From a virus: a DNA stretch of 64,000 nt. The stretch lies in the IMG/VR virus record IMGVR_UViG_3300030329_005082, positions 114,631-178,630 of that record, one strand, 5' to 3'. The notes beneath the pieces were generated by a model. The model was not told the DNA's origin. It saw nothing but the letters and a program-made list of their open reading frames with translations, and ran no database searches. Below, in pieces: positions 10,908-56,329 of the stretch. Position numbers and translations under genes: made by a program. How positions within the stretch are numbered: the first letter of the stretch is position 1; each line of letters starts with the position of its first letter.

Positions 10908-11312
10908 TTAACTAGTCATTGTTGATGTTATTATTAGCTGATCTTCCTCATCATATGGTAAGATATTATATGTAATGACAACCCTAACCTCATTAAAACC
11001 CATAGTGGGGTCCTCATCTGATGTTGTAAAGTTGACAGAAACAAGGTTTACCGCTGGAGCATACATGTCTGCTTGTTCTGCCACTCTGGAGGCTATCTCC
11101 TCAAATGTAGATGGTCCAACATTCTCAAATAAAAGGTTATAAATACCTACACCAAAATTAGGAATCATGACTCTTTCGCCAGGTGATGTGAGAACAATGT
11201 TTTTAAAGTTCTGCTTAATCACCTCTTTGAGGGTCTTATTTAGACGATATGGCCCATCCGTCTTGTCGTAAACTAGAGGGACTTTTGGTGATATTCCTTG
11301 TCTCTTTGTCAT
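10908..11312 (-). CDS. GPW/gp25 family baseplate protein
   Basis: KQNFKNIVLTSPGERVMIPNFGVGIYNLLFE, the gp25-family signature; 134 aa. Confidence 0.9.
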   Translation of the reverse strand: MTKRQGISPKVPLVYDKTDGPYRLNKTLKEVIKQNFKNIVLTSPGERVMIPNFGVGIYNLLFENVGPSTFEEIASRVAEQADMYAPAVNLVSVNFTTSDEDPTMGFNEVRVVITYNILPYDEEDQLIITSTMTS

Positions 11313-17700: not shown

Positions 17701-17706
17701 CTTTTA

Positions 17707-18849
17707 TTACTTCTTTACAAATAGATTGGGGAAAAAATCTGTTTCAGGGTCAGCATGAGTGCCAAATTGTGAAACCTGTCCGCCCGTTTGCCAGGACGGA
17801 TCATTATCATACACTACACCAAAATGTAGATGAGCAGGTCCTGCACCGGAGTCTCCCGATAAAGCTATTTGATCTCCTGCTTTTACTGTTTTTCCTGAAC
17901 CAAACTTGTTAGCAGCTATTACAGAGTCTTTTGTAAGGTGCATATAAAGAGTATAAAAAGTACTATTTGGAGTATCAGCTTTATATGCTGTGTGCTTAAT
18001 GACGGCATAATACCCTGCACCGTGAGTTTCTGGATTTCGCGATTGAGCGGCTGCAATAAGCTCGCCATCCAAAACTGCATAAACTTTTTGTCCAACCCCA
18101 GCCCTTAAGTCTATTCCAGCATGGTTTGCTGAACCTCCTGGGGGTGGGTTTCTTGATCCAAAGGGTGAGGTTATATGCCCTAAAGCTTCTGTGTTTGTAG
18201 TTGGGCGCGCTGTTAAAGGCCCTCTTGGTGAAACTCCTGTAGTTGACTTTGGTATTGACGTCTGTTTTATGGGTCTACCGCGGGAACCTCTGGAAGCTGC
18301 ACATGCCTTTTTGACCGTTGATTTCTTTGCTGATCCACTATTAGGCATTGGAACTTCGCAGTTTTCGGAAGAATCGGTCCAATCAGGGCTATTATTAATT
18401 ATTTTAATAATTGTCGCGCCGATTTCGGCAGTAAAACAAGTACTAGGGTTGTTGATTCTTATTTGTACTTTAGCACCAGCAACAAGTTCTGTTCCTCCTA
18501 AAGACTCATCAATATCGCAAGTGATTTGGGGTAAATCAACTGCATTATCTTTAGCACTCAGAGGCTTAGGACAAATATAACTTCTAGGATCTTCTTCAAC
18601 CCTTACTTTATATTTTACATGTTTAAACTTATCTGATTGGAAAAATTCAAAGTTACCAATCTTTTCGTACCAAGTGGGTAAACGGAGAGCACCAGTCAAC
18701 ACCTTAGCTGTAACAACTTGGTTTTCTTTATATGTGCTCTTTCTTGCGATAAGTTTTCGGTTATTTTGCTTAAGCAAACCATCAACGCCATCAGAAGGAC
18801 GCCAAGAAGTCTGAGTCAAATCAACTGGTTTATTATCAGAATCTGCCAT
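17707..18849 (-). CDS. M23 family peptidase (tail-associated peptidoglycan hydrolase-like)
   Basis: ITSPFGSR..HAGIDLRA (HxxxD), YMHL, GDQIALSGDSG..PAHLHFGV (HxH). Confidence 0.9.
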   Translation of the reverse strand: MADSDNKPVDLTQTSWRPSDGVDGLLKQNNRKLIARKSTYKENQVVTAKVLTGALRLPTWYEKIGNFEFFQSDKFKHVKYKVRVEEDPRSYICPKPLSAKDNAVDLPQITCDIDESLGGTELVAGAKVQIRINNPSTCFTAEIGATIIKIINNSPDWTDSSENCEVPMPNSGSAKKSTVKKACAASRGSRGRPIKQTSIPKSTTGVSPRGPLTARPTTNTEALGHITSPFGSRNPPPGGSANHAGIDLRAGVGQKVYAVLDGELIAAAQSRNPETHGAGYYAVIKHTAYKADTPNSTFYTLYMHLTKDSVIAANKFGSGKTVKAGDQIALSGDSGAGPAHLHFGVVYDNDPSWQTGGQVSQFGTHADPETDFFPNLFVKK

Positions 18850-18854
18850 TTCTA

Positions 18855-19145
18855 TTACTCCTTATTGAGCATATCAAACAACTGATTCTTGTCTGCTTCG
18901 GATAGACCGTCTTGCTTCGTTGCTGCATCCTTTTTATAAACCAAGGTTGCCAACTTGACAAGTTGTTCATTACTTCTCTGAAGTGTTTCTACAAATTTGG
19001 CTGCAACGGGACCGCTATCAGAGTAACGATCTGCCGAAACAACCATATATTCTTTAAGGTTAGAAAGCAAGTCTTCAGTGACTTGACGATCCTTATTTAT
19101 ATTATCTAGAGCTTGCTCTATTAGTGATTCTAAGTTCTTTTTCAT
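18855..19145 (-). CDS. Hypothetical protein
   Basis: 96-aa helical ORF (AKFVETLQRSNEQLVKLA) downstream of the sigma gene; preceded by CTATTTAT. Confidence 0.75.
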   Translation of the reverse strand: MKKNLESLIEQALDNINKDRQVTEDLLSNLKEYMVVSADRYSDSGPVAAKFVETLQRSNEQLVKLATLVYKKDAATKQDGLSEADKNQLFDMLNKE

Positions 19146-19160
19146 ACAATAAATAGGAAG

Positions 19161-19853
19161 TCACTTAATTTCTCCTTCGTTCCACTTACTCTTGAAAACT
19201 CTGAACTTCTCTCTCATCTTGTTTAGACAACTGACTATTTGTTTTGTATTCAGACCTGTAATCTCTCTCATATACAGATATATTGCCTTTTTGTTGAAAA
19301 TTTCTATTTGGTCCACGTTATTCATAAGGGTCAAAATTGCATTTAGGACTTTTTCCTCATTGGGTTTTAGGTTTGGGTTGTGCCAGCTTTTTATTTCTAC
19401 CAACAAAAAGTGCCAAAATTCTCTCTCTTCTTGTTCATCAAACAGATCTTCATTTTCGCCGTTAGATACAGCCTCAATCTCACGAATCATTGAATCGTAT
19501 TCAATCTCGCGACGGTTCTTTTTGGTCTGTTGTTTAGCTTTGTGAGTGAACCAGTTTTTTGTGACTACTGAAAAATAGGAAAATGCTTTTGTGCCCTGGG
19601 TTGGGTCAAATTTGCCGAGGATTGTTGTCAACCAGATTTTACAATCTTCCTTGAGATAATCAATATTCTCTAGAGAAGTAAACTTATAAGTATAAACAAT
19701 CTTAGTCACAAGTTCGTCAAAAGCTGGTTGGATATGTTCTACATATAGTTCTGTTCTTTTAGATAAGCTATCAGTGGCACAATAATCAATAATTGCCTGT
19801 TCTGTAACTTTTGTAAAATAATGATTTTTCTTTTTAGCTTTTCTAGCCATCAT
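19161..19853 (-). CDS. Phage RNA polymerase sigma factor, T4 gp55-like
   Basis: HYFTKVTEQAIIDY..., KFDPTQGTKAFSYFSVVTKNWF (region-2-like FDP..G.KAFSYF). GGAGAG SD favours a start at 19853 or 19850. Confidence 0.7.
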   Translation of the reverse strand: MMARKAKKKNHYFTKVTEQAIIDYCATDSLSKRTELYVEHIQPAFDELVTKIVYTYKFTSLENIDYLKEDCKIWLTTILGKFDPTQGTKAFSYFSVVTKNWFTHKAKQQTKKNRREIEYDSMIREIEAVSNGENEDLFDEQEEREFWHFLLVEIKSWHNPNLKPNEEKVLNAILTLMNNVDQIEIFNKKAIYLYMREITGLNTKQIVSCLNKMREKFRVFKSKWNEGEIK

Positions 19854-25344: not shown

Positions 25345-26591
25345 AATTCAGTCATTCTCCATGCTTGGTAGTTCTTACGATTTCCCCACGATCCGTACTT
25401 TTCATGAATCTCTTGAAGAAGATTAACCCAAGAAGTGCCGTAGTTGTCAAAGTTGTAGTTCTTCATGACATGTTCACGTCCTTGTTGACCTAGTTCTTCC
25501 CTTTTTTTCGGAGACATTGCGTAAATCTCATTCAATGCGGAAATGAAATCTTCCTTTGAAACACGATCTTCATAAATGTAAGGAACTTGTTGGGAGCCGA
25601 TGAGGGCTTTGGATGCTGGCTTTAAGCCGATTCCAAACCAGTTTTCCCCATCAGTTAGCTGCTCTTGTAGTCCGCCAGTAAGAGTAGCAATAATCGGTGT
25701 CTCGCTGGCCAATGATTCTAGGGTTGATAATCCGAACCCTTCAGCATCGGCAATATTGACTGTACAATCAGCAATGCCATAAAGCTTTGCTAGATCTTCT
25801 GCCGGCAAACCTTCCTTAGAGAAGATAACCTCTGAGTTGACAAGTCCATAATGTTCTGCTAAGTACTCAAGTGGTTGTCCATGCGGATCATCTGGTTTTG
25901 TGTGCATAATCAAACAGGCGCTGTCTTGATCTATGTGATCCTGCTTCAGGAATTCACTAAACCAATGGATGAGTGTCCCGCTCTGCTTCCTTCTAGCATT
26001 TCTATTATTCCAGAAAACAATAAATTTGTCTTTTAGAGCTTTGTTGTTTTTTAATACGTCTGCTCTTTCTGATGCCGATATTTTCCGGAAAATGTCTACT
26101 GGCACAGCGTGAGGCAAATAAACCTCGTGAACATCCGGAGATACGTTTTGAACAATATCACTGGTGACTTTTGAAATTGTCACTATTACATCATTTGAAT
26201 CGTAAAACTTCTTATTATACATGGGCAGCGGATAATTGTCCCATACATGATAATAAATCATGGGGATATTTTGGCGAATATCTTCCTCAAACATCCACAA
26301 CCACTCATAATATCTTGGATCAGTCATAAACCAAAGCATATCTGGCTTAACTTGATTGATTAATCCTAGAATTTGCTGCTTATCGCCGTAACCATCTACA
26401 GGAAGAATGTGCCAATGCTCTTCCTTCTTCATCAAATTGTAATTCGGATGTTTAATAGCTCCACCAAGTGAAAATACTTCAAACTTTCCGGACTTCAGAA
26501 GAGCCTCAATCATATACTTTGTTTGTGTACCAACACCTGATGGCAGTAAAGGGTGGTCACTAATCGTCATGACCTTGATTCTATCTGACAA
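25341..26591 (-). CDS. Glycosyltransferase family 4
   Basis: SDHPLLPSGVGTQ, NRNARRKQ, AEGFGLSTLESLA.ETPII. Confidence 0.9.
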   Translation of the reverse strand: MSDRIKVMTISDHPLLPSGVGTQTKYMIEALLKSGKFEVFSLGGAIKHPNYNLMKKEEHWHILPVDGYGDKQQILGLINQVKPDMLWFMTDPRYYEWLWMFEEDIRQNIPMIYYHVWDNYPLPMYNKKFYDSNDVIVTISKVTSDIVQNVSPDVHEVYLPHAVPVDIFRKISASERADVLKNNKALKDKFIVFWNNRNARRKQSGTLIHWFSEFLKQDHIDQDSACLIMHTKPDDPHGQPLEYLAEHYGLVNSEVIFSKEGLPAEDLAKLYGIADCTVNIADAEGFGLSTLESLASETPIIATLTGGLQEQLTDGENWFGIGLKPASKALIGSQQVPYIYEDRVSKEDFISALNEIYAMSPKKREELGQQGREHVMKNYNFDNYGTSWVNLLQEIHEKYGSWGNRKNYQAWRMTEL

Positions 26592-26600
26592 TTTTATCTC

Positions 26601-27440
26601 CTATGAACAATATTCTGTCTTATAAAACTCACAAGTGCCAAATCTATCTTTACAGTTTGTGCAAGAATTTCGGTTCTTGATGTAGTTTTCCTTTGTGATA
26701 TTATGCAATGCTTTCGTCAAGGCGTTAAGTGCATCGGTAGTTCTTTTCTTGCCGGCAGTCACCCGCACGAACTCGGCTTTCTTGCCAACCTTCGCAGTTC
26801 GCTTGAGCAAAACGAAGTGACAGTCAACGTCTTTGGGGTCAACTTCGTACTTCTGGGCATAGAAGTGTTTATAGAATACGAGTTGGTAGGCGAGGATTTT
26901 GTCACTCTTCTTTTCACGTCGCCAACCCCAGGAGCAGGTCTTCCAGTCAATCAGGTGGATTTTCTCATCCTTCTTAGAATAGACCACAAGATCAATAAAG
27001 CCTTTGAACTTTTTTTCTGCTTCCGTGAATTCTGTGATGGGCTCGTAGAGTTGTTCTTCGGCTGCCAGCACTTCCCAGTCCTCACCGAGTTTACCGAACT
27101 TGTCGGCAAGACAACGATAAAGGTCAGGAATGATTTCAATACCATTTACCAACCACTCTTTGAGGGCGAAATCTCTTTTAGCTTCTAATTGGGCATCATC
27201 GGGCAGGGCGTTGAGTTCTGCGATAAACTGCTCTTTAACCAGCGCCATGATGGCACCTTGAGATTTGTACTTTTCGGGGGAAGTCAAAGTAAATTCACAA
27301 ACAGTGTGAATGGCTTTCCCGAAAGCCGTGTAGATGTTGCCCTCAAACTGAGCTACTTTGTCAATATATGTAAGCTTGTGATAATGAGGACAAATGTGCC
27401 AATTCCGCCACTCGGAATAGGAGATGTGTTTGCCTGCCAT
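26601..27440 (-). CDS. PD-(D/E)XK exonuclease, Cas4/RecB-like, probable Fe-S cluster
   Basis: ISYSEW..W..CP, GKAIH, GFIDLV, LIDWKT, C-terminal CxxC...C.......C. Confidence 0.85.
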   Translation of the reverse strand: MAGKHISYSEWRNWHICPHYHKLTYIDKVAQFEGNIYTAFGKAIHTVCEFTLTSPEKYKSQGAIMALVKEQFIAELNALPDDAQLEAKRDFALKEWLVNGIEIIPDLYRCLADKFGKLGEDWEVLAAEEQLYEPITEFTEAEKKFKGFIDLVVYSKKDEKIHLIDWKTCSWGWRREKKSDKILAYQLVFYKHFYAQKYEVDPKDVDCHFVLLKRTAKVGKKAEFVRVTAGKKRTTDALNALTKALHNITKENYIKNRNSCTNCKDRFGTCEFYKTEYCS

Positions 27441-27452
27441 GTGATCTCTTTC

Positions 27453-28112
27453 TTAGAGATTGTGTAAATTCTCTATCTTATTATACAACAAAGGACTGAT
27501 TTTGAATAGTGTTTCTTTGTTTCCCATGTAAAAAGCTTCAAAACCCGTTGCAAAATATTCCCTGAGAGATACAGATGCATATGGTCTTACGAAGAGTCCA
27601 GCGGTGGATAACTTCAGCATATTTCCACCAACCCTATCATATAAGAACATATCTAAGTCCTTATTGTATTTAATATCTGTAAAATCATACTCTTCGGTCC
27701 AGTAACCCTCTGCACGCAATTCTGCTTCTAACATCTTTCGCTTCTTTAGAAATTCTGACTGGATCTCACCATCGTCATAGATCTCTTTTACATATTCTGT
27801 CTCTAGGTGATGAGCCATCTCATGAATCAAATCATCCAGAAGATCAACTAATTTATCCTGTTTGTCTGACAAATAAAGCCAATCGTTAGAATATAGGGCT
27901 GATATGTTCCTATCGTCAAATTCTTCTCTATGGGCAATTTCAACCCCTTTGAGCCCTTTGAAATAATGTGAAGGAAACTTATCTTCAACTGCTCTAAACA
28001 CAGGGGAGAAGTCTACGCCGTCTTCTGCTGGTTCTTCTTGATTAACTACAACATTCCCAAATCTAAAATGTCGGGTAGTGTTTTTAGTTTTTTCAAGAAT
28101 GTATTCTCTCAT
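27453..28112 (-). CDS. Zincin-like metallopeptidase-fold protein
   Basis: LIHEMAHHLE (HExxH), SLREYFATGFE. Confidence 0.6.
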   Translation of the reverse strand: MREYILEKTKNTTRHFRFGNVVVNQEEPAEDGVDFSPVFRAVEDKFPSHYFKGLKGVEIAHREEFDDRNISALYSNDWLYLSDKQDKLVDLLDDLIHEMAHHLETEYVKEIYDDGEIQSEFLKKRKMLEAELRAEGYWTEEYDFTDIKYNKDLDMFLYDRVGGNMLKLSTAGLFVRPYASVSLREYFATGFEAFYMGNKETLFKISPLLYNKIENLHNL

Positions 28113-29452: not shown

Positions 29453-29478
29453 AAAGAAAAAGCCGCCCGAAGGCGGCT
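29453..29478 (-). terminator. Intrinsic terminator abutting the tmRNA 3' end
   Basis: AGCCGCC-TTCG-GGCGGCT followed by TTTTCTTT on the minus strand. Confidence 0.9.
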
Positions 29479-29800
29479 GGTGGAGGTAGGGAGAATTGAA
29501 CTCCCGTCTTGTCTAGTTCCATAAAAAGGTCATTTACAAGGTTAGTAGTGCTTTTATCGTCGGCAAAACACTTGACTAGATCATTTTACTTCTGGTGAAA
29601 ATAATCAAAAACACTTAGGAATTCAAATATGGCTTTCTGTTTATTGGCTGCCACCGCCTCAAACATCGTCAGGTTATTAAGCTGCGAGTGCTAGTTGAAA
29701 ATCGTCGTTTGCGATTATTAGATAAGCGTTTTTAGTGAGCCACGCTTCCCTCACCCTTGCACCTTTTTTACTTTCCTATCAATCGATCCCGGTTACCCCC
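29478..29800 (-). ncRNA. ssrA: tmRNA, tag peptide (A)ANDDFQLALAA
   Basis: 5' GGGGGTA pairs with 3' TACCTCC-ACCA including G3:U70; T-arm GGGAG-TTCAATT-CTCCC; resume context ATAATC-GCA; tag ORF 29712-29677 ending TAA TAA; 323 nt. Confidence 0.95.
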
Positions 29801-44909: not shown

Positions 44910-44997
44910 TGGAGGAAGGAGAGGGATTCGAACCCTCGGTGGGTTGCCCCACACAGCATTTCCAATGCTGCACCATCGGCCTCTCGGTCATCCTTCC
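44910..44997 (-). tRNA. tRNA-Ser(GGA)
   Basis: Acceptor GGAAGGA/TCCTTCC, anticodon arm CAGCA-TTGGAAA-TGCTG, long variable arm GTGGG-GCAA-CCCAC, encoded CCA. Confidence 0.95.
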
Positions 44998-45000
44998 ATA

Positions 45001-45030
45001 TATAAGCAGTTTAAAGACATGCTTAGGTCA
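45001..45030 (-). other. Repeated pseudoknot-like/palindromic element, copy A
   Basis: TGACCTAAGCATGTCTTTAAACTGCTTATA; ends 3 nt before tRNA-Ser. Confidence 0.55.
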
Positions 45031-45050
45031 TACGCTAGAATCGCACTCTA

Positions 45051-45126
45051 TGGTGGAGAGTATCGGAGTCGAACCGATCACCCCCTGCGTGCAAAGCAGG
45101 CGCTCTACCAGATGAGCTAACTCCCC
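45051..45126 (-). tRNA. tRNA-Ala(TGC)
   Basis: GGGGAGT/ACTCTCC with G3:U70; CCTGC-TTTGCAC-GCAGG; CCA encoded. Confidence 0.97.
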
Positions 45127-45151
45127 ATTGATATAATTAGAAGGCAACAAA

Positions 45152-45271
45152 CTACTTTACTCTAAATCTATGATCAATCCATGACTTTGTGTAATACATG
45201 ATAGATAACCATACTGAAAACAGTAAACCATCAACATACCCAAGGCTATCCCAAATCTCTACGAGTTCCAT
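45152..45271 (-). CDS. Small membrane protein (39 aa) inside the tRNA cluster
   Basis: GGAG SD; MELVEIWDSLGYVDGLLFSVWLSIMYYTKSWIDHRFRVK; below the track cutoff. Confidence 0.65.
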   Translation of the reverse strand: MELVEIWDSLGYVDGLLFSVWLSIMYYTKSWIDHRFRVK

Positions 45272-45280
45272 TTGTTCTCC

Positions 45281-45311
45281 TATAAGCAGTTTATAGACTT
45301 GCTTAGGTCTA
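45281..45311 (-). other. Repeated pseudoknot-like/palindromic element, copy B
   Basis: TAGACCTAAGCAAGTCTATAAACTGCTTATA; starts right after the tRNA-Thr CCA and abuts the SD of the 39-aa ORF. Confidence 0.55.
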
Positions 45312-45387
45312 TGGTGCCGGCTGTAGGGATCGAACCTACGGCCTTCGGGTTACAAATCCGATGCTCTCCCAACTGAGCTAAGCCGGC
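45312..45387 (-). tRNA. tRNA-Thr(TGT)
   Basis: GCCGGCT/AGCCGGC, loop TT-TGT-AA, TTCGATC T-loop, CCA; A31-C39 mismatch. Confidence 0.93.
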
Positions 45388-45391
45388 GGTG

Positions 45392-45468
45392 TGGTAGGGG
45401 ACCAGAGACTTGAACTCTGAACCTCCCGATTATGAGTCGGATGCTCTAACCAATTGAGCTAATCCCCC
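45392..45468 (-). tRNA. tRNA(CAT), most likely Ile2 (lysidine acceptor) rather than Met
   Basis: Anticodon arm TCCGA-CTCATAA-TCGGG (CGACTCATAATCG as in enterobacterial tRNA-Ile2); no initiator GGG/CCC stem; tilS 1.5 kb upstream. Confidence 0.85.
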
Positions 45469-45484
45469 ACAAATATAATATTCC

Positions 45485-46348
45485 CTATTCCTTATCTTGT
45501 ATATTTTTAGGGAAACCATTTTTTACTAATAGATTTCCCATTTCTACAAATTCTTCGTTGATTTCAAACCCTACCCACCTGTAGCCTCTTTTTTCGCAAA
45601 CATAACATTCGCTACCAGTGCCGGCAAAAGGTATAACAACTGTTGCACTTTTTCCATCTTCAATACAAGCATCCAGAAGAATTTCTGTGATTTTTGTTGG
45701 TTTTTGAGTTGGGTGAGAAATAGTATCATCAACCGAGAGTGCTTTTCTTTGCTTTGAGGTATACAGCATCTGATTTGAAGGAGAATAGAAAAATCTTTCT
45801 TTCAAACCTGCACCACCAGCCAAAGACGGAGTACAAATAACATCTCTTGGTAATGCACCTTTATCATGTGCTTTGTAGACTGTTTCTTTATCTCCAAACC
45901 GACCTTTTGTATTTTTCCTTTTTTTGCCGGCAGCATTCTTCAAAAACTGATCAGTATAAGGAACCCTTACTTGGTCTCTGAAAAATGTTCTCTGCTCTTT
46001 CCAGCAGCATAAAATAGATTCGTGCGTTCTTTGCCAAAAGTTTAAGCTCGGAACAGTTTTGTTTGTATAGTGCCACACGAGCCAGCGTTTATTCAAATCA
46101 ATATTCACAGACAAATGTGCCAGAATTTCAGAAAATCCATAAATATACATTACACCGTCGGATTTTAAAATTCGCTCACATTCTGCCAGCCATGATTGAG
46201 CCCATGAAATATATTCAGAGATATCAAGATTGGTCTTGTTGTTGCCATAATCTTTGCCAATATTATACGGCGGATCTAAGATAATACAATCCGCACTGTC
46301 TGATTTGACTTTACGAAGACCTTCAACTACATCAATATGATAAATCAT
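45485..46348 (-). CDS. DNA N4-mC/N6-mA methyltransferase, beta class
   Basis: ILDPPYN (motif IV) N-terminal; HPTQKP and PFAGTGSE (motif I) C-terminal. GGAGTGG SD supports the start at 46348. Confidence 0.9.
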   Translation of the reverse strand: MIYHIDVVEGLRKVKSDSADCIILDPPYNIGKDYGNNKTNLDISEYISWAQSWLAECERILKSDGVMYIYGFSEILAHLSVNIDLNKRWLVWHYTNKTVPSLNFWQRTHESILCCWKEQRTFFRDQVRVPYTDQFLKNAAGKKRKNTKGRFGDKETVYKAHDKGALPRDVICTPSLAGGAGLKERFFYSPSNQMLYTSKQRKALSVDDTISHPTQKPTKITEILLDACIEDGKSATVVIPFAGTGSECYVCEKRGYRWVGFEINEEFVEMGNLLVKNGFPKNIQDKE

Positions 46349-46370
46349 CACCACTCCATTGTGGAATATT

Positions 46371-46982
46371 TTACCACATTTCAATCTCTTTGATAAATGG
46401 TAGGTCAATCAATTTATAGTAATTTGAAATTCCACCAACAATGTAATCATCGTTGTCAGATTTTTCACCGCCTTGTTGTTTTCGGAATGGCTTCCTGTCA
46501 ATCTGATTGATGTATTCAACAAAATCTTTTTTCTCCATGAAATATGCACGAATCAAAGGCGGCTTTGAGGTGCGATTTTTCTCAGAGATAATCTGATTTT
46601 TTTGATCATAGTTTGGATTAATTCCGAAAAAGATAAAACGTTCCCAATCTTTTTCCGCAGCAATATGATTAAAGGTAAAAGTATCAGGCTGGATTAGCTT
46701 TTGATCATCTTTAGTTCTTACTGAATTAGCCAGAGAAAACTTGATCTCGGTCTTATAGCCATCAATAATTCTATCATGCCCAGGATTTGTAGGTGATTCA
46801 ACTTTAGCACCTAACTGCATCTCCATAAACCCCTCTACATATTCTTCACCAAAGTGACCTTTTTGTTTGGGATCCATTCGGGGATAGTCTTCAAAGTACG
46901 TACCCCTCCAGTTGTTGTGCAGAGAACGATCAATGTACTCTTTAAGGTTTTTGTTTTCAAAGATTTTTTGATGTAGACTCAT
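46371..46982 (-). CDS. Putative type II restriction endonuclease (PD-(D/E)XK)
   Basis: KQKGHFGEEYV..GHDRIIDGYKTEIKFS (E...D...ExK); directly upstream of the MTase. Confidence 0.65.
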   Translation of the reverse strand: MSLHQKIFENKNLKEYIDRSLHNNWRGTYFEDYPRMDPKQKGHFGEEYVEGFMEMQLGAKVESPTNPGHDRIIDGYKTEIKFSLANSVRTKDDQKLIQPDTFTFNHIAAEKDWERFIFFGINPNYDQKNQIISEKNRTSKPPLIRAYFMEKKDFVEYINQIDRKPFRKQQGGEKSDNDDYIVGGISNYYKLIDLPFIKEIEMW

Positions 46983-47577
46983 TTTTATATTCCTTTTCTA
47001 CGAGTTTACGAAATGTCTTTTCAACGCCCGGATTTACGAGCCGGGCATGGGGCATAATATCGTGCCTAATGATGCTTCTCATGAACTTTCTGTCTGCATT
47101 TCCTGGGTCAACAAGAAATGGCACCTCTTTTCTATTGCACCAATCTTCTAGAGAGCGTTTAGAGGTGGGGATAAAGGGTCTAATAACATTTTTGTTCTGG
47201 TAGGGGATAATCTTACCGTGACCATGGATAGAAGAGAATAAAAACCACTCAATCACGTCGTCTAAATTGTGCCCTGTTACAATAGGCATATTGAAGCTGT
47301 GGAAGAATTTGTAACGCTCATCTCGCCAATGTTCTTCAAGTGATTTTTTCGGCGGACAAGAGTTGTAATTAATTCCAATAACAATTGGAATATCCCTTTT
47401 ATCACAAAAATCTTTTACAAACCTTTTACACTTTCTTCCAAAGTTTGTGCCGTGATCAAAATAACAAGCGGTCACATCGTGATTGTTGTTGAGGAAATCT
47501 AAAATAGCCATTGAGTCTGGTCCGCCGCTGACAGCGACGCCCAATTCTCTTGGTAGTTTTTCTAGAATTCTCAACAT
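46957..47577 (-). CDS. tilS: tRNA(Ile)-lysidine synthetase, minimal catalytic-domain form (206 aa)
   Basis: VAVSGGPDSMA (PP-loop), DHG, RDERY, TGHNLDD..E, IRP, DPGN. AGGAG SD gives the start at 47577; the track extension overlaps tRNA-Arg. Confidence 0.88.
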   Translation of the reverse strand: MLRILEKLPRELGVAVSGGPDSMAILDFLNNNHDVTACYFDHGTNFGRKCKRFVKDFCDKRDIPIVIGINYNSCPPKKSLEEHWRDERYKFFHSFNMPIVTGHNLDDVIEWFLFSSIHGHGKIIPYQNKNVIRPFIPTSKRSLEDWCNRKEVPFLVDPGNADRKFMRSIIRHDIMPHARLVNPGVEKTFRKLVEKEYKNESTSKNL

Positions 47578-47587
47578 TATAACTCCT

Positions 47588-47664
<77 letters not shown>

Positions 47665-49639: not shown

Positions 49640-50404
49640 TCAGTACCCCTGTAATGCTAATATTAGCTCGGCTGGACCCTGTACATCATGATAGGCTGCG
49701 GATTTCATAGCAATATCCAAATCGTTCCCATCCTTGCAGATTTTATCTCCAAAAAATACACACTGGTCTGGGGTTTCTATCATGTTGGTAAAAGCATAAC
49801 TCTTGTCCCATCCCTCTCTGGTGATATCAATAGAAATCTGCCCACCGAGCCGAAAAGATAGCCCCCATCCTTGGAACTCTTTTCTGAGTTGTTGCACGAT
49901 CTTTTTGCGCTCACCGCTTTTTAGATCCCATTGAACATAATCTTCTCGCTGCTCGCTTGAGCAATTGCGACCTAAAACAGAAAAGTTGATCTGGCTCTCT
50001 CGCCACTCAATAAAAGTTCCTGTTTTGATTTTAGTGTGAGTCTTGCTAGCTATCTTCAGCAAAACATTGATTATGTGGTTTATATCTGCGTTTGAATAGT
50101 GATCCAGAAGCGTAACCTTGTGAATTAGTTCTGGCTCTATGGGGCTAGTTTCATCATCCATATCTAAATTGCAGTTATAAACCCTTGTCCCATTGCAGGC
50201 ATATACGCGATCAAACAAAGATAAAAGATCATCTTTGGGGATTTGTTCTTCTATTTTTGTTAGTTCTGAACCTGTAACTAGGTGCCGTTTGGTTCCTGCG
50301 GCGGTGGAGCGCAATGCCTGCAAAACATCTTCCGTGATGGATTGTCTAGGTTCGGTAATAGTACCATCCATGTCAAACAATAAGGCTTTTGGGGTTAGTT
50401 TCAT
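49640..50404 (-). CDS. Phosphomannomutase, eukaryotic-type PMM family (HAD-IIB)
   Basis: FDMDGT, VTGS, GTFIEWR...INFSVLGR, GGQISID, GWDK, FFGDK....GND. Confidence 0.88.
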   Translation of the reverse strand: MKLTPKALLFDMDGTITEPRQSITEDVLQALRSTAAGTKRHLVTGSELTKIEEQIPKDDLLSLFDRVYACNGTRVYNCNLDMDDETSPIEPELIHKVTLLDHYSNADINHIINVLLKIASKTHTKIKTGTFIEWRESQINFSVLGRNCSSEQREDYVQWDLKSGERKKIVQQLRKEFQGWGLSFRLGGQISIDITREGWDKSYAFTNMIETPDQCVFFGDKICKDGNDLDIAMKSAAYHDVQGPAELILALQGY

Positions 50405-50803: not shown

Positions 50804-50831
50804 ATAATATCATGTAGTGTTATAATGTCAA
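50804..50831 (-). promoter_or_regulatory. Sigma70-type promoter
   Basis: TTGACA-16 nt (ending TGA)-TATTAT. Confidence 0.7.
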
Positions 50832-51802
50832 GAGATGCGGATAAAATCTTTTATTTTTACGTTTTTGGACAACTTTTCTTCAGATCCAGAACATAAATCA
50901 GTTGAAAGATACTTTTTATTATCATCACACAGAACAGTAGCTGTTAGGTCATCTGGGAACTCTGAAGCCTTCAAAATAGCTGAAAAAACGTTAGCGCCTG
51001 ATGATATTCCTACAGAAAGTCCTATTTTGTTCAATTGTCTGGCTATATTGATAGCATCTTCATCAGAAACTCTTATAATTGGACCTAAAGAGTCCAAATC
51101 TAGTATCTCTGGGACAAAACTATCACCTATTCCTTCAATTCTATGCCCTTTATCTTCATTATTGATCGGTAATATTGGAAATGCGCGAAATCCTTCATTT
51201 CTGTCGGTAAAATAATGGTGAAAACCCATTATTGTGCCCCCGGTGCCTGCTCCTGCGACAAAAATCTTCAAATTTGGCAAATTATTGTCTTTGAGAGCTT
51301 CTCTGACCTCTGGGGCAGTAGTATTCATATGAGCGAAGACATTCCATGCATTATTGAACTGTTTTGGTCCAAAATAGCCCTTTTTCTTGCTTTTTTTAGC
51401 TGCTAGCTCAATACAATGCGTAAATCCGCCATCTTTTTCGCTTATTTCTATTAATTTTGCCCCATAAAACCTTAAAAGAGACTTTCTTTCCTCAGAAAGC
51501 CAGTCTGGCATGTATATTTCTACTTTACTGCCCAAATAAGCGCCCATCGCAGCAAAGGCAATACCTGTATTGCCGCTTGTAGCCTCTACAATGGTGTCGC
51601 CCTCGTCAAATTGAGATAAATTCTCTGCACTTTCTAAAATTTGTAAAGCCATTCGGTCTTTTATGCTACCGGAGAAGTTCCATGCTTCATATTTTGCATA
51701 AACTACGACTTCTTTGCCATCTAATTCGGCAATTATCTTAATGAGTGGAGTATTTCCAACGAAATTTCTTAATTTCTGTATCTTCTGTGCAAATTTAGAC
51801 AT
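50828..51802 (-). CDS. cysK: Cysteine synthase (PLP-dependent, CysK/CysM family)
   Basis: VGNTPL, SGSIKDR (Schiff-base Lys), EATSGNTG, GAGTGGT, IEGIG, GISSGA, KYLSTDL. Confidence 0.9.
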   Translation of the reverse strand: MSKFAQKIQKLRNFVGNTPLIKIIAELDGKEVVVYAKYEAWNFSGSIKDRMALQILESAENLSQFDEGDTIVEATSGNTGIAFAAMGAYLGSKVEIYMPDWLSEERKSLLRFYGAKLIEISEKDGGFTHCIELAAKKSKKKGYFGPKQFNNAWNVFAHMNTTAPEVREALKDNNLPNLKIFVAGAGTGGTIMGFHHYFTDRNEGFRAFPILPINNEDKGHRIEGIGDSFVPEILDLDSLGPIIRVSDEDAINIARQLNKIGLSVGISSGANVFSAILKASEFPDDLTATVLCDDNKKYLSTDLCSGSEEKLSKNVKIKDFIRIS

Positions 51803-51812
51803 TTCTTATGCT

Positions 51813-53765
51813 CTAACTGTCTCTCCAGAGATTGTTAGCAGCAAATTTGATGACTTCTTCCGCTGAATCTTCATTGTATCCGTACTCCTCAATCAGAGTA
51901 GACACCATTTCGTTGTATTTTCCTTTCTGCTTCTTGTCACGACTCTTAGATTTCGTTACAATTCGGGAAATTTCCTTCACAGAAGAGGTTAATTTGCTTT
52001 CAATAGCTTCACGAAGCGGAGCATAGCTTTGCCAATCTACTTTTTCACCGCGACGAAGCTTGGAAAACATATAAGCTGTGATATCAACTCGGAAATTCTC
52101 TTTAGCAGTGCCAACAATAGCGATCTGTTCTTCAATAGATACCATGAAAGCCTCATCTGGTGAGATTTCTTCATTTGTCACGCTGTCTTTTACAGTTGAC
52201 ATGTTGACATAAGCCTCAGCATGATCCAGATAGTTATTGAAAAGTGCTTCTGCCTGCTCATCGTAAGCAGAGACAAACGCTTTGGTGATTTCCTTCTCTA
52301 GAATATTCAAATATTCATCATGAAGGGTCTTACCTAAGAAATCCAAGTAACGATTACGATCATCTTCAACAACAATCTGATCTTTTACTTGCTTGATAAG
52401 CGCGTCGCGAATAGAAATTGGGGTTACCATGTTCTTATCACTATCAGATAAGGCTGAATCAATGGCTTTCATAATGAATCTTGTAGAAATTCCGGTCATA
52501 CCTTCGTCTCTAGCTTCATCTCTAAGGTCATTAATGTCTATTTTCTTTACATGTCCCTTTTCAATAACTTCTTCGCCGTCATAAAGCTTCATTTTGGTTA
52601 GTGCATCAACCTTGTTTGACAAGTGAAGACGACTCAAGACAGCAAACATAGCAGCAATTTCAAGTGTATGGGGAGCAATATGACCATCAAAGTCAGATAA
52701 TCCTAACATTTTCTCATAAATCTTCTGCTCTTCGGAAACCTCCAAGCAGTAAGGAACGTTTACACGAACAATACGATCAAGAATTGCTTCATTTGTGTTC
52801 TCAGACTTGAATTTATTCCATTCGGCTTCGTTGCAGTGGGCCAAAATGACACCATCAAAATAAATCATTGGACCCTTACCTGGGGAAGGTACTGCCTTCT
52901 CCTGGGTGGCTGTGATCATGGTGTGAAGGAATTCAATTTCATTCTTGAAAACCTCAACAAATTCAACGATACCACGGTTACCAACATTAAAGGCACCATT
53001 CAAAGATAAAACGCGAGGATCATCCTCTGAGTAGAGATCTAGTTTGGAAATGTCCTCACTGCCAACCAGAATTGTAACATCCTGACTGTTAGCATCCATT
53101 GGGGGCACAACACCTACACCGCGACGCCCACGTACTGAAAAGGATGATTGCGTTATTGGCATTGCTGTGTAATCATTATTAAACTCTTCTTTTAGTCTGT
53201 GTCGGCATACAGGACACAAGTCACCTTCAATTTTTATATTGTAAATTTCCTCAAACTCTGGTCTTAGAGAGCGGGGAACAAGGTGGAGAGGCTCTTCATG
53301 GATTGGGCAGCCATCAATGTGATACATTGGCTCACATTGTTCTAGTGCTGATTTGATATGCTCCATGAGCGCGGATTTACCCGCACCAACAGGTCCCAAA
53401 AGTAATAGCACCTGACGGCTTTCTTCGCCTTTGAGCGAAGCTGAACGCAAAAATCTCATAATCTTTGCTAGTGATCTTTCCATCCCGAAAAACTTGCTCT
53501 GGAAATAGTCGTAAGTCTTTACCTCTTCTCCGCCGAATAATTTATTGCAGCGAGAATCAGATTTAGACATTCTTGTCACACCTTGTCCGGCAAGAACATC
53601 ATATAGTCGTCTATGTGCTAGCGAGGTAATAGATGGATCCTTCTCAATTTGTTTGAGATAATCCTCTAGGCTACCACTAAATTTTTCAACCGTCTTCTTT
53701 TCTCTGTGTTTTTCAACCAGTTTCAAGAATTTACTTGATTTATTTTCTTTTGGCATGTGATTCAA
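51813..53765 (-). CDS. prkA: PrkA/YeaG family AAA+ ATPase / serine kinase
   Basis: FFGMERSL, LLGPVGAGKS, GCPIHEEPL, GAFNVGNRGIVEFVEVFK, ITATQE, EAILDR, VPYCL; 650 aa. Confidence 0.95.
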   Translation of the reverse strand: MNHMPKENKSSKFLKLVEKHREKKTVEKFSGSLEDYLKQIEKDPSITSLAHRRLYDVLAGQGVTRMSKSDSRCNKLFGGEEVKTYDYFQSKFFGMERSLAKIMRFLRSASLKGEESRQVLLLLGPVGAGKSALMEHIKSALEQCEPMYHIDGCPIHEEPLHLVPRSLRPEFEEIYNIKIEGDLCPVCRHRLKEEFNNDYTAMPITQSSFSVRGRRGVGVVPPMDANSQDVTILVGSEDISKLDLYSEDDPRVLSLNGAFNVGNRGIVEFVEVFKNEIEFLHTMITATQEKAVPSPGKGPMIYFDGVILAHCNEAEWNKFKSENTNEAILDRIVRVNVPYCLEVSEEQKIYEKMLGLSDFDGHIAPHTLEIAAMFAVLSRLHLSNKVDALTKMKLYDGEEVIEKGHVKKIDINDLRDEARDEGMTGISTRFIMKAIDSALSDSDKNMVTPISIRDALIKQVKDQIVVEDDRNRYLDFLGKTLHDEYLNILEKEITKAFVSAYDEQAEALFNNYLDHAEAYVNMSTVKDSVTNEEISPDEAFMVSIEEQIAIVGTAKENFRVDITAYMFSKLRRGEKVDWQSYAPLREAIESKLTSSVKEISRIVTKSKSRDKKQKGKYNEMVSTLIEEYGYNEDSAEEVIKFAANNLWRDS

Positions 53766-55078
53766 AACTCCCAGGTGTCTTCTTCAATGACCGTAGTAAA
53801 TTTGATGGTACCTGACCACAGTTCATTGATGTAACCAAACACTTTATTAGCTTCTGACAATTCTAGGTCCCTTCCATCGTGCTCATGTTCCAGTATTAGT
53901 GTACCATCCTTTAATAATTCTTTTACAACAATGACAGGAACCGAGTTTAATCCTACATTCTTAATTAGATCGTCGCGAATAGTTCTCCAACTATCTTCAC
54001 CGGATACATCTCTAATCCTAGTGACTCCCTCGCGATTATCAAAAGAATATGTAAATAAATTCAGATCTTTGCATAACTCTAAGTCAAAATAAGTTTTTAT
54101 AAAAGTTTCGTCATTATGTGTTTCTCTTGCGCGCAAACATTCCTCAAACCCGTGAAGCTCTTCAATGCGTTTGAATATTTTATATCCAAGATGATAAGGG
54201 TTTACACGACCCAGGTGAGGTCTAATGACTTGGTTGTGAAGGCGGATAAAAGCAAGATGATAATCATCTGGGATCCCAAGTTTTTTGACAATTTTCTCGT
54301 GCATCAAGACAGCCCAACCCTCATTCATGATTTTGGTTAATGCCTGCGGCACAAAGTAGCTAGACTCATCAGCTACAATATTTATCAAATCTTTCTCCCA
54401 GGGTTCTAGAAAGCGATTATGGTCTGCAATAAATCTAAGAAGATTTTGATCTGGTTCTAGGGGTATTTTATTTATATTGAAATTATCCCACCTTCCAGAG
54501 GTGTCATTTAGCATAAGATTTTTATAATACTCTTTCAGTTTTTTATGGTCTCTTCTGGCTACCCCAGGAGTCCGAGGGACCTGAAATCTTATGGAGTGAC
54601 AAGCATCCAATATCTTCTCTACTTTATCTACGCCTATGTTGGGATCTTCCATATACTTCTTGACGCGCTTAGAGGCGGCTTTGAAGCGATCAATAGCTGT
54701 TTCGGCTCTTGTCTCGGTGAACATACGGTTGTTCTTGAAAAAGTCACTATGACCGACGCAATGTGCCATTGTAAGTATATGGGTAGACATTGGATTCTCG
54801 GTCATCAAATAAGCGATACTAGGGTTAGAGTTGATAATCATTTCATATGGCAGCCCTGACATGCCTAGATTATATTCTGTTTGGATACGGTCAAAAGATT
54901 TTCCATAAGACCAGTGACGGTAATGAGTTGGAAGCCCGGAATAGGCCATGTGTCCAATCATTTCTTTATAATCACATATTTCATAAGAAATTGGGTACCA
55001 ATCCAATGTAAACTCTTCGCCGAGCTTACAGATCTTATCGTCCCAATCTTGAAGTTCTTCCATAGACCAGTCAGCCAT
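53762..55078 (-). CDS. spoVR: SpoVR/YcgB family protein
   Basis: GLPTHYRHWSYGK, YEMIINSNP.IAYL, MAHCVGHSDFFKNN, TKIMNEGWA, NPYHLG, L.L.HEHDGRDL. Confidence 0.95.
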   Translation of the reverse strand: MADWSMEELQDWDDKICKLGEEFTLDWYPISYEICDYKEMIGHMAYSGLPTHYRHWSYGKSFDRIQTEYNLGMSGLPYEMIINSNPSIAYLMTENPMSTHILTMAHCVGHSDFFKNNRMFTETRAETAIDRFKAASKRVKKYMEDPNIGVDKVEKILDACHSIRFQVPRTPGVARRDHKKLKEYYKNLMLNDTSGRWDNFNINKIPLEPDQNLLRFIADHNRFLEPWEKDLINIVADESSYFVPQALTKIMNEGWAVLMHEKIVKKLGIPDDYHLAFIRLHNQVIRPHLGRVNPYHLGYKIFKRIEELHGFEECLRARETHNDETFIKTYFDLELCKDLNLFTYSFDNREGVTRIRDVSGEDSWRTIRDDLIKNVGLNSVPVIVVKELLKDGTLILEHEHDGRDLELSEANKVFGYINELWSGTIKFTTVIEEDTWEF

Positions 55079-56268
55079 TAGTTCTTTGCTCCAAATAAAC
55101 GCTTAAATGATTTCCAGATATCATTATGGTTTGCAAGTCTCACTTTCTTAAGAGTACTGTCTTCAACCATTGATACCCAATCCCATAGTTTTTTCTGGGG
55201 CTCAATACCATAGAATATTCCACTGCTGTCTTCATATGGTCTAAAATCCCCTATTTCAGTATAGCACATCATTTGGTTTATCTCTTTAAGTTCTCTGAGA
55301 GCTTCAACAGCCTCTTTGTTGTCAATAGCCCAGTTGTCACCATCACCACAATAGAACGTATAAATGTTCCAATTATTCGGATGATATCTTTTATTGATAA
55401 TTTCCTGCACTTTTCTCAATCCAGTAGACACAAGAGTTCCCCCGGAAGGAACCTGTGTGAAGAATTGCTCTTCATTGACTTCTTTCGCCTCGGCAGTGTG
55501 AGAGACAAAGACAACATCAACTTCAGAATAGCGATGATTCAAAAATTGGTACAAAAGAAAGAAGAAGCTTCTAGCTAAGAATTTTTTAGATTTGGTCATA
55601 GAACCTGAAACATCCATAACAAAGAATATGACGGCTGTGGTGTTTTCTTTTTGCACAGGCGCAATATGCTTATAGCGTAGATCACTCTCGTGAAATGTAA
55701 ATCTTTCGTCACTCTCTGGATCATAACTGCCAGCTTTGATGGCTGCTTTTTTTCTTCTGATCTTTTGTTTTATAGTCTCTTTTTTAGATAAGCGTGGGCG
55801 AATGCCGTAAGGTCGTTTGCCTTTGCGTTTCATCTTTTCTTCGGTGATAAACTTGAATCTTTTCTTTTCTAAGTCTGGAAGATTTAGATCAGCAAATAGA
55901 TATTCTGCCAACTCTTCTAGCGACATTTCTATTTCATAAGATTCTTCACCAGGCTTGTTTCCAGCCTGTTCGCCGGATGACTGTCCTCTTTTCTTGCGTC
56001 GCCCAATAGATTGACCTTCTTGAACGTCAATTCCTTCTGCCGAGCCTACGCGTTTATTTTTTTGATTGTTTCCATAAACAAAGCGATGTTCTTTGATCCC
56101 TTTAACAGGGATTCTTACTTTCTTCTTGCCGCTCTGTCCAATTATACTTTCTTCAGCGACAACATCTCGGATACTATCTTTTATGGCTCTTTCAATTTTT
56201 TGACGGTGGCGCGTCCTGTCGCCCGCTGCACGGTCAGCAATTGTTTTATGCTCTTTGAAAGTACTCAT
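55078..56268 (-). CDS. yhbH: DUF444 family (YeaH/YhbH) vWA-like protein
   Basis: DRTRHRQKI, RIPVKGIKE.RF, LNLPDL, DLRY, MDVSGSM, HTAEAKEV.EE.FF...SGGT..S, GDGDNW. Confidence 0.93.
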   Translation of the reverse strand: MSTFKEHKTIADRAAGDRTRHRQKIERAIKDSIRDVVAEESIIGQSGKKKVRIPVKGIKEHRFVYGNNQKNKRVGSAEGIDVQEGQSIGRRKKRGQSSGEQAGNKPGEESYEIEMSLEELAEYLFADLNLPDLEKKRFKFITEEKMKRKGKRPYGIRPRLSKKETIKQKIRRKKAAIKAGSYDPESDERFTFHESDLRYKHIAPVQKENTTAVIFFVMDVSGSMTKSKKFLARSFFFLLYQFLNHRYSEVDVVFVSHTAEAKEVNEEQFFTQVPSGGTLVSTGLRKVQEIINKRYHPNNWNIYTFYCGDGDNWAIDNKEAVEALRELKEINQMMCYTEIGDFRPYEDSSGIFYGIEPQKKLWDWVSMVEDSTLKKVRLANHNDIWKSFKRLFGAKN

Positions 56269-56329
56269 GTATTATAGACCCCGTAGTAATTAGTTTATTC
56301 AGGGACTAAACAAGAAAGACTATTATTTA

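Follow-up and report, generated by a model that had tools for sequence, protein, structure and literature searches.

The final 64,000 nucleotides (64 kb, hereafter the window) of the 178,630-bp (about 179 kb) IMG/VR record IMGVR_UViG_3300030329_005082 carry three tightly packed, co-directional open reading frames on the minus strand, which encode homologues of YhbH/YeaH, SpoVR/YcgB and PrkA/YeaG (Table 1). The trio is a module fixed in an abundant clade of uncultured marine myoviruses of the T4 superfamily (genomes of 168-293 kb), in which the cellular order PrkA-YhbH-SpoVR has given way to YhbH-SpoVR-PrkA. Linkage is of the operon type, with a 1-nt overlap at one junction and a 5-nt spacer at the other. 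The YhbH stop and the SpoVR start share 1 nt (TAATG). The open frame of PrkA (51813-53765) extends up to a TTG at 53765, in overlap with the SpoVR stop, and an ATG at 53756, preceded by GGGAG, lies 5 nt past that stop and opens a 647-residue protein identical to an entry in public databases; this ATG, rather than the overlapping TTG, is most likely the start. A first-pass annotation had described three full-length, overlapping genes. Pfam matches to all three families bear out a complete module, and the overlap holds for YhbH and SpoVR but most likely not for PrkA. GC content is even across the locus.

The SpoVR match to its Pfam family covers profile positions 1-405 of 407, with the additional SpoVR_C domain (PF24755) scoring 27.0 bits, just under its cut-off of 27.6, and PrkA matches the AAA_PrkA domain (6.3e-141, residues 32-387) followed by the PrkA C-terminal domain (2.4e-79, residues 389-641), which is kinase-like. 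NCBIfam names agree with Pfam for all three genes, and the equivalog cut-offs were missed throughout (YhbH, 381 versus 468 bits for TIGR02877; YcgB, 260 versus 679; YeaG, 400 versus 576); the best model for YhbH is the Bacillus type (B. subtilis YhbH). Judged by these scores, the phage proteins are members of the three families and not equivalogs of B. subtilis YhbH, E. coli YcgB or E. coli YeaG.

The functional motifs named in the first-pass annotation proved intact. In PrkA, the Walker A motif, the Walker B region and NEAILDR are present and conserved across 196 homologues; NEAILDR is the putative Arg-finger region of the annotation. The Walker A motif corresponds to the K108 motif that B. 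subtilis PrkA needs for ATP binding (PMC9512850). YhbH retains the residues of the metal-ion-dependent adhesion site (MIDAS) DVSGS, SGGT and GDGDN; D219, S221 and S223 are invariant in 34 sequences and conserved in 158, and T278 and D309-N312 are also kept. Its AlphaFold2 (AF2) model has a poorly modelled N-terminal half and a confident C-terminal alpha/beta domain with a von Willebrand factor A (vWA) fold (Foldseek E of about 1e-6; 183 matches at E<=0.001), matched by vWA and integrin I-domains and by the MIDAS domains of Rea1/MDN1; a sequence search of the PDB with YhbH alone gave nothing meaningful. SpoVR keeps the residues that are invariant in its family. The closest solved homologue of PrkA is PDB 9xip (E 2e-97). 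The entries 9xip, 9xiq and 9xir together hold 30 chains of a 692-residue 'serine protein kinase' that is a clear PrkA homologue, and a literature search found no structure paper for 9xip.

A search of marine metagenomes for relatives of the window's PrkA gave 8000 candidates, 7794 of them at E<=0.001; the best 120 are all at least 87% identical, and several come from Tara samples. The survey of IMG/VR for the triad, proposed with the first-pass annotation, gave 160 contigs that encode a PrkA relative, and the gene order was read in 80 (PrkA 63-96% identical). It was YhbH-SpoVR-PrkA in 78, the other two loci ending at a contig edge. In an independent contig (L005) both flanks hold the same genes in unchanged order (79-93% identity); across phage subgroups the flanking genes vary and the trio is constant. 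Among named cellular loci, the 78 whose PrkA is most similar (57-61% identical) all read PrkA-YhbH-SpoVR; they come mostly from Clostridia and Negativicutes, with a few Gammaproteobacteria and one Binatia metagenome-assembled genome (MAG), so that the permutation noted from the letters alone stands. Most of the 124 Bdellovibrionota genomes searched have the module; YhbH lies downstream of PrkA in 29 of 31 resident copies, and the other two loci end too soon. The phage module is of the 'PrkA' subtype of Bacillota and Bdellovibrionota.

Maximum-likelihood trees (quick search, with Shimodaira-Hasegawa-like approximate likelihood ratio test, SH-aLRT, as the only support measure) place the phage copies in a single clade for each gene, supported at 100 for PrkA, 97 for YhbH and 98 for SpoVR, which answers in the affirmative the question of whether there is a phage-specific clade. 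The PrkA clade sits on a stem branch of 0.36, and in all three trees the window's copy falls within the same nested subclades. The sister of the PrkA clade is a group of Bacillota, with support of only 89 and no donor that can be named; the nearest cellular PrkA proteins are of Bacillota and Bdellovibrionota types, not myxobacterial. Pairwise ratios of nonsynonymous to synonymous substitution rates (dN/dS) are 0.014-0.08 for all three genes where dS is below saturation, and in most pairs dS is saturated, yet protein identity is 85-95%. Five large clade genomes of 168-293 kb, of which three are 90% complete or more, have a terminase large subunit (TerL) that is 47-64% identical to that of the window's phage, versus 63-76% for PrkA, and the two proteins rank the genomes roughly alike. 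Fixed differences between phage and cellular proteins number 11 in PrkA, 5 in YhbH and 7 in SpoVR and are mostly conservative, and the alignments of homologues begin at the first residues of the trio proteins. Because the phage copies form a clade in three trees, with dN/dS of 0.014-0.08 and PrkA conserved above TerL, the module is an old acquisition that has been inherited vertically as a unit under strong selection.

Table 1. Features of the trio locus (positions in the window) and proteostasis genes elsewhere in the phage (positions on the full record)
Feature	Position	Strand	Basis
YhbH/YeaH homologue (DUF444), 396 aa	55078-56268	-	PF04285, 8e-105
MIDAS motif DVSGS of YhbH, residues 219-223	55600-55614	-	Translation
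SpoVR/YcgB homologue, 438 aa	53762-55078	-	PF04293, 5e-117
HCVGH of SpoVR, residues 106-110, on long helix 97-116	54749-54763	-	Alignment and coordinates
NEGWA of SpoVR, residues 252-256; candidate metal or catalytic Glu	54311-54325	-	Alignment
PrkA/YeaG homologue, 647 aa from the ATG at 53756 (most likely start)	51813-53756	-	PF08298 and PF06798
Walker A GPVGAGKS of PrkA	53373-53396	-	Motif conserved in homologues
Walker B region GIVEFVEVFK of PrkA	52944-52973	-	Motif conserved in homologues
61-nt spacer upstream of YhbH	56269-56329	-	Sequence read
AAA_5 ATPase (full record)	1234-2274		Pfam
ClpP (full record)	13695-14297		Pfam
GroEL-type chaperonin (full record)	17702-19288		Pfam
FtsH (full record)	25888-27714		Pfam

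The record that carries the module is 98% complete by CheckV. It encodes a DNA polymerase, a DnaB-like helicase, a ribonucleotide reductase, an SbcCD-like nuclease and PhoH, together with the structural genes for the major head protein, portal, TerL and baseplate wedge (phrog_138, phrog_213, phrog_2 and phrog_219). TerL is 45% identical to that of Flavobacterium phage vB_FspM_immuto and 43% to that of Microcystis phage Mel-JY01, and the major capsid protein is related to the capsid protein of Rhodothermus phage RM378; the locus had no match to cultured phages at the DNA level. By the relationships of these proteins, the carrier is a distant T4-superfamily ('far T4') myovirus, uncultured and marine. 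It is a genuine phage genome and not a chimera junction, because GC content is even, the flanks recur in an independent contig, the gene order is specific to phages and the genes fall in a phage clade. Elsewhere in this genome lie genes for an AAA_5 (MoxR-like) ATPase, ClpP, a GroEL-type chaperonin and FtsH (with AAA and M41 domains).

Among genome collections, the two best PrkA matches have the phage order and are nested inside the phage clade. The contig with the closest 'bacterial' PrkA, from a Halobacteriovorax MAG, has phage-type flanks (a phrog_2488 helicase at 2e-76, a phosphohydrolase and a GroEL-like gene), and another contig of the same MAG carries a capsid gene 65% identical to that of the phage; these are probably mis-binned phage contigs. 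A Bdellovibrionota MAG has an ordinary PrkA-YhbH locus and, in addition, a second trio in phage order that is nested in the phage clade and flanked by cellular-looking genes for Fpg, a GDSL lipase and a PAS histidine kinase, which points to either a prophage remnant or a passage of the trio from phage to cell. We rejected both copies as pointers to a host or donor, the one lying on a phage-like contig and the other nesting in the phage clade.

The spacer upstream of YhbH holds a single ACTAATTAC at 56286-56294, with an inner TAATTA at 56287-56292, and has TATAAT directly before the ATG. The first-pass annotation had taken ACTAATTAC for a putative phage motif, and we rejected it as a repeated phage signal: it occurs once in the window, where 0.55 occurrences are expected, and with one mismatch allowed there are 14 sites versus 18 expected, so that the 9-mer is not enriched in either form. 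Only its inner TAATTA fits a TANTTA box, which 30 of 174 genes (17%) have in the 45 nt ahead of them, versus 9.5% in shuffled upstream windows; this enrichment is modest and tells little about the trio operon. Scans for sigma-70-type promoters and intrinsic terminators between 50.5 and 57.5 kb did not rise above shuffled background.

Sequence searches of the PDB with SpoVR, single or as a profile, gave nothing meaningful, and a literature search did not find SpoVR described as a peptidase. Its AF2 model has a predicted local distance difference test score (pLDDT) of 84.6 and a predicted template modelling score (pTM) of 0.84. When residues 1-342 were compared by VIA-align, nearly all of the top 50 matches were zincin-type metallohydrolases or zincin-like proteins, among them members of the M1/LTA4H, M3, M32, thermolysin, M30, M61, dipeptidyl peptidase III and angiotensin-converting enzyme families. 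The best match had a Z of 11.3, in a range that may be chance for helical models, with a root-mean-square deviation (rmsd) of 3.4 A over 178 residues, and the best rows had an rmsd of about 3.3-4.4 A. These matches are suggestive of a zincin-like fold. H106 and H110 are invariant in 158 sequences and have the H-x3-H spacing of HExxH; position 107 between them is C (79), V (77), I (1) or A (1) in the same sequences and never E. In this helix cellular homologues have V107 and N111, versus C107 and S111 fixed in the phage clade. On a later helix lies NEGWA, of which N252, E253, G254 and A256 are invariant and W255 is kept in 153 of 158; it may resemble the third-ligand motif of M1 peptidases, WLNEGFA.

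E. coli YeaG (SpdA) is required for a starvation-induced, largely non-specific degradation of cytoplasmic proteins that yields amino acids and ATP (PMC13684143), and yeaG, yeaH and ycgB have a cofitness of r>0.7 in six bacteria (10.1101/072470). The PrkA of B. subtilis uses the lysine of its Walker A motif to bind and hydrolyse ATP, and it showed a weak, ATP-dependent degradation of casein but no kinase activity (PMC9512850); the model of B. anthracis PrkA is a hexamer of the clade III AAA+ type that has a pore loop (PMC13001217). A likeness of PrkA to Lon has been claimed (PMC9512850) and disputed (PMC13001217); in the phage PrkA, neither Lon_C, the Ser-Lys dyad domain, nor any other peptidase was among the Pfam matches at E<=0.001.

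We see about an even chance that the conserved, rearranged module serves as one machine for the bulk turnover or remodelling of host proteins during infection. The three proteins would act together, as their cellular homologues do, with PrkA as the AAA+ motor, YhbH as its vWA/MIDAS adaptor and SpoVR as a zincin-like, metal-binding partner. Host cytoplasmic proteins would then be turned over or remodelled in an ATP-dependent manner, and the freed amino acids and energy could feed phage synthesis where seawater is poor in nutrients, in parallel to the reuse of host DNA by phages as a source of nucleotides. A single machine of this kind would reconcile the inactivity of PrkA alone with the proteolysis phenotype in vivo, and its use for bulk turnover or remodelling, which we see as the most parsimonious one for a phage, would fit the other proteostasis genes, the GroEL-type chaperonin, FtsH, ClpP and the AAA_5 ATPase. 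A bolder version, which we regard as possible but rather doubtful, is a split three-part protease, with PrkA as the AAA+ unfoldase, YhbH as the vWA/MIDAS adaptor that couples the parts and SpoVR, by way of H-x3-H and NEGWA, as a non-canonical zincin-like hydrolase that would provide the peptidase otherwise lacking. With it the marine clade would liquidate the host proteome to gain amino acids and energy. If true, this would add a class of viral auxiliary function not recognised so far and account for the scant protease activity of PrkA alone.

Several observations weigh against turnover by a single machine. Neither protease nor kinase activity could be detected in B. anthracis PrkA of high purity (PMC13001217), and given this result PrkA itself may not be a peptidase; the study of starvation-induced protein degradation in E. 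coli left YeaH and YcgB out (PMC13684143). The evidence for a zincin fold in SpoVR is weak, as a Z of about 11 is possibly chance for helical models, a Foldseek search with the SpoVR model returned no match at E<=0.001, and the protein lacks the catalytic Glu of HExxH. No RNA runs were listed for the 4.5-kb trio stretch; it is contained in only two marine DNA runs, from which this DNA may itself derive, and the remaining runs listed have small portions of it. Finally, most TerL-related IMG/VR contigs are short, and PrkA was not seen in five longer fragments (37-68% complete), among them two relatives of 67-68% completeness; some members of the wider lineage may thus do without the module.

The emphasis of the first-pass annotation was on dormancy and sporulation, with the phage steering the host's entry or exit. 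In a more general form of this reading, the module would be a signalling device that drives the host into, or keeps it from, a starvation, dormancy or sporulation state, to the benefit of infection. In cells, the homologues have been linked with the RpoS, NtrC and sigma-E programmes and with the efficiency of sporulation (PMC4664914, PMC9512850, PMC13001217), the trio has been interpreted as a signalling pathway by Price et al. (10.1101/072470), and a kinase-like C-terminal domain would suit such a role, but the Bacillus proteins were found without kinase activity (PMC9512850, PMC13001217). Regulators, moreover, usually co-evolve with host-specific targets, whereas the phage proteins retain nearly every conserved cellular residue and PrkA is conserved across phages with TerL only 47-64% identical. 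Nor is the module specific to sporulation, occurring as it does in E. coli and in most of the Bdellovibrionota genomes searched, and we saw no sign of a host that sporulates or is a myxobacterium: the closest cultured phages by TerL and major capsid protein have Flavobacterium, Microcystis and Rhodothermus as hosts, and the nearest cellular PrkA is non-myxobacterial. We consider a regulatory takeover improbable, and bulk protein turnover would seem better founded than dormancy steering, given the data on YeaG (SpdA) (PMC13684143). Proteolysis or remodelling aimed at a few host complexes, such as ribosome hibernation factors, defence proteins or regulators, instead of the bulk proteome, is in our estimation also quite unlikely. 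AAA+/vWA pairs do act on specific complexes, the MIDAS domains of Rea1/MDN1 are among the fold matches, the vWA MIDAS site is intact, and a phage that already has FtsH and ClpP may find a third bulk protease redundant; however, YeaG-dependent degradation in E. coli is broad and non-specific (PMC13684143), and the very small number of phage-specific substitutions argues against retargeting.

MoxR/vWA-type pairs are known assembly chaperones, which is what speaks for the alternative raised with the first-pass annotation that the AAA+/vWA pair builds or loads the capsid or tail as a chaperone of virion assembly or maturation. Nothing else in our analysis lends it support, and we judge it very unlikely. 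The N-termini of the proteins are those of ordinary cellular homologues, which function without any virion; flanking genes differ among phage subgroups while the trio stays the same; and immuto, Mel-JY01 and RM378 are absent from the PrkA matches, which suggests that related virions are built without it. The genes are clearly of cellular origin, the nearest cellular PrkA being 57-61% identical. That they were captured from a host recently and without selection, or that the assembly is chimeric, has nonetheless a negligible probability. The annotation had named a dN/dS near 1 as the mark of such a capture, and the values of 0.014-0.08, with a deep monophyletic phage clade in three trees, exclude it; phage hallmark genes, uniform GC, a phage-specific gene order and the same flanks in independent contigs exclude a chimera.

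YeaG was tied to starvation-induced global proteolysis only in 2026. That a large and abundant phage clade has retained the whole trio, with very strong purifying selection on it, is independent evolutionary evidence for one self-sufficient, host-portable machine, and the clade supplies compact, host-independent natural variants for reconstitution and structural work. It also raises the hypothesis that marine phages may recycle host protein besides host DNA, which would bear on the flow of nutrients in the ocean during viral infection.

Other features of the window lie outside the module. A gene for a CysK/CysM-like pyridoxal-phosphate enzyme (50828-51802, minus strand; TIGR01136, 3e-75, under that model's cut-off) begins 10 nt past the PrkA stop and adjoins the trio only in the closest phage subgroup, and a HAD-IIB/phosphomannomutase-like gene lies at 49640-50404. 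Five tRNA genes occupy 44910-47664 on the minus strand (Ser-GGA, Ala-UGC, Thr-UGU, Met-CAU and Arg-UCU), and a transfer-messenger RNA at 29478-29800, also on the minus strand, has the tag peptide ANDDFQLALAA. Near the baseplate wedge gene (9091-10884) are two giant minus-strand open reading frames, one at 1-7575 of at least 2525 residues, which runs off the window, and one at 11309-16774 of 1821 residues.

The trio has been annotated in cultured phages for years, though unstudied, and what is described here is no new kind of system. By tblastn, PrkA occurs in 17 records of cultured and deposited phages. The Thermus phages phiYS40 and MN1 have the same permuted order, DUF444-SpoVR-PrkA, with an additional open reading frame of 616 residues and no Pfam match between SpoVR and PrkA in phiYS40; for Thermus phage TMA the search gave PrkA. 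In these phages of a thermophile the genes are annotated as 'conserved bacterial protein', SpoVR and serine kinase, and PrkA is about 33% identical to that of the window, on long branches outside the marine clade. Ralstonia jumbo phage RsoM2USA has the canonical order PrkA-DUF444-SpoVR (ORF30-29-28), and the paper on it places SpoVR and PrkA in separate functional classes and discusses no module (PMC8504454). The huge metagenomic phages LR756502 and LR756511 have PrkA and YeaH in canonical order, and SpoVR was found in LR756511. The YeaG subtype includes the PrkA proteins of RsoM2USA and LR756502, which share 55% identity with each other and about 31% with that of the window. Since all these other phage copies share only about 30-33% identity with the window's and lie far off in the tree, the distant phage lineages probably got the module by separate acquisitions. 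The yeaG-yeaH pair of Enterobacter phage LAU1 (record positions 1-3308) was rejected as a phage module; it lies at the edge of the record beside lambdoid tail genes and is probably host DNA at a prophage edge.

Among cellular systems, the closest are the prkA-yhbH-spoVR operons of Clostridia, Negativicutes, Bdellovibrionota and a few Gammaproteobacteria MAGs, which likewise join three full-length, adjacent families. These operons of the PrkA subtype are 54-61% (PrkA), 38-48% (YhbH) and 39-48% (SpoVR) identical to the phage trio and have the Walker, MIDAS and SpoVR invariant residues in common with it, whereas the phage trio differs in its YhbH-SpoVR-PrkA order, its own clade and its scores under the NCBIfam equivalog cut-offs. 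YeaG (SpdA)-YeaH and YcgB of E. coli belong to the same three Pfam families, but YeaG is of a different subfamily that roots the tree, phage PrkA is only about 33% identical to it, ycgB is unlinked, and the regulation by RpoS and NtrC does not apply to the phage. With FtsH, in which an AAA+ motor is fused to an M41 zincin peptidase, the likeness is by analogy only. The phage parts, unlike those of FtsH, are separate proteins, with a vWA adaptor between and a SpoVR without the Glu of HExxH; both would combine an AAA+ motor with a zincin-like domain, and B. anthracis PrkA has been classed, like YME1/FtsH, with the clade III AAA+ proteins (PMC13001217).

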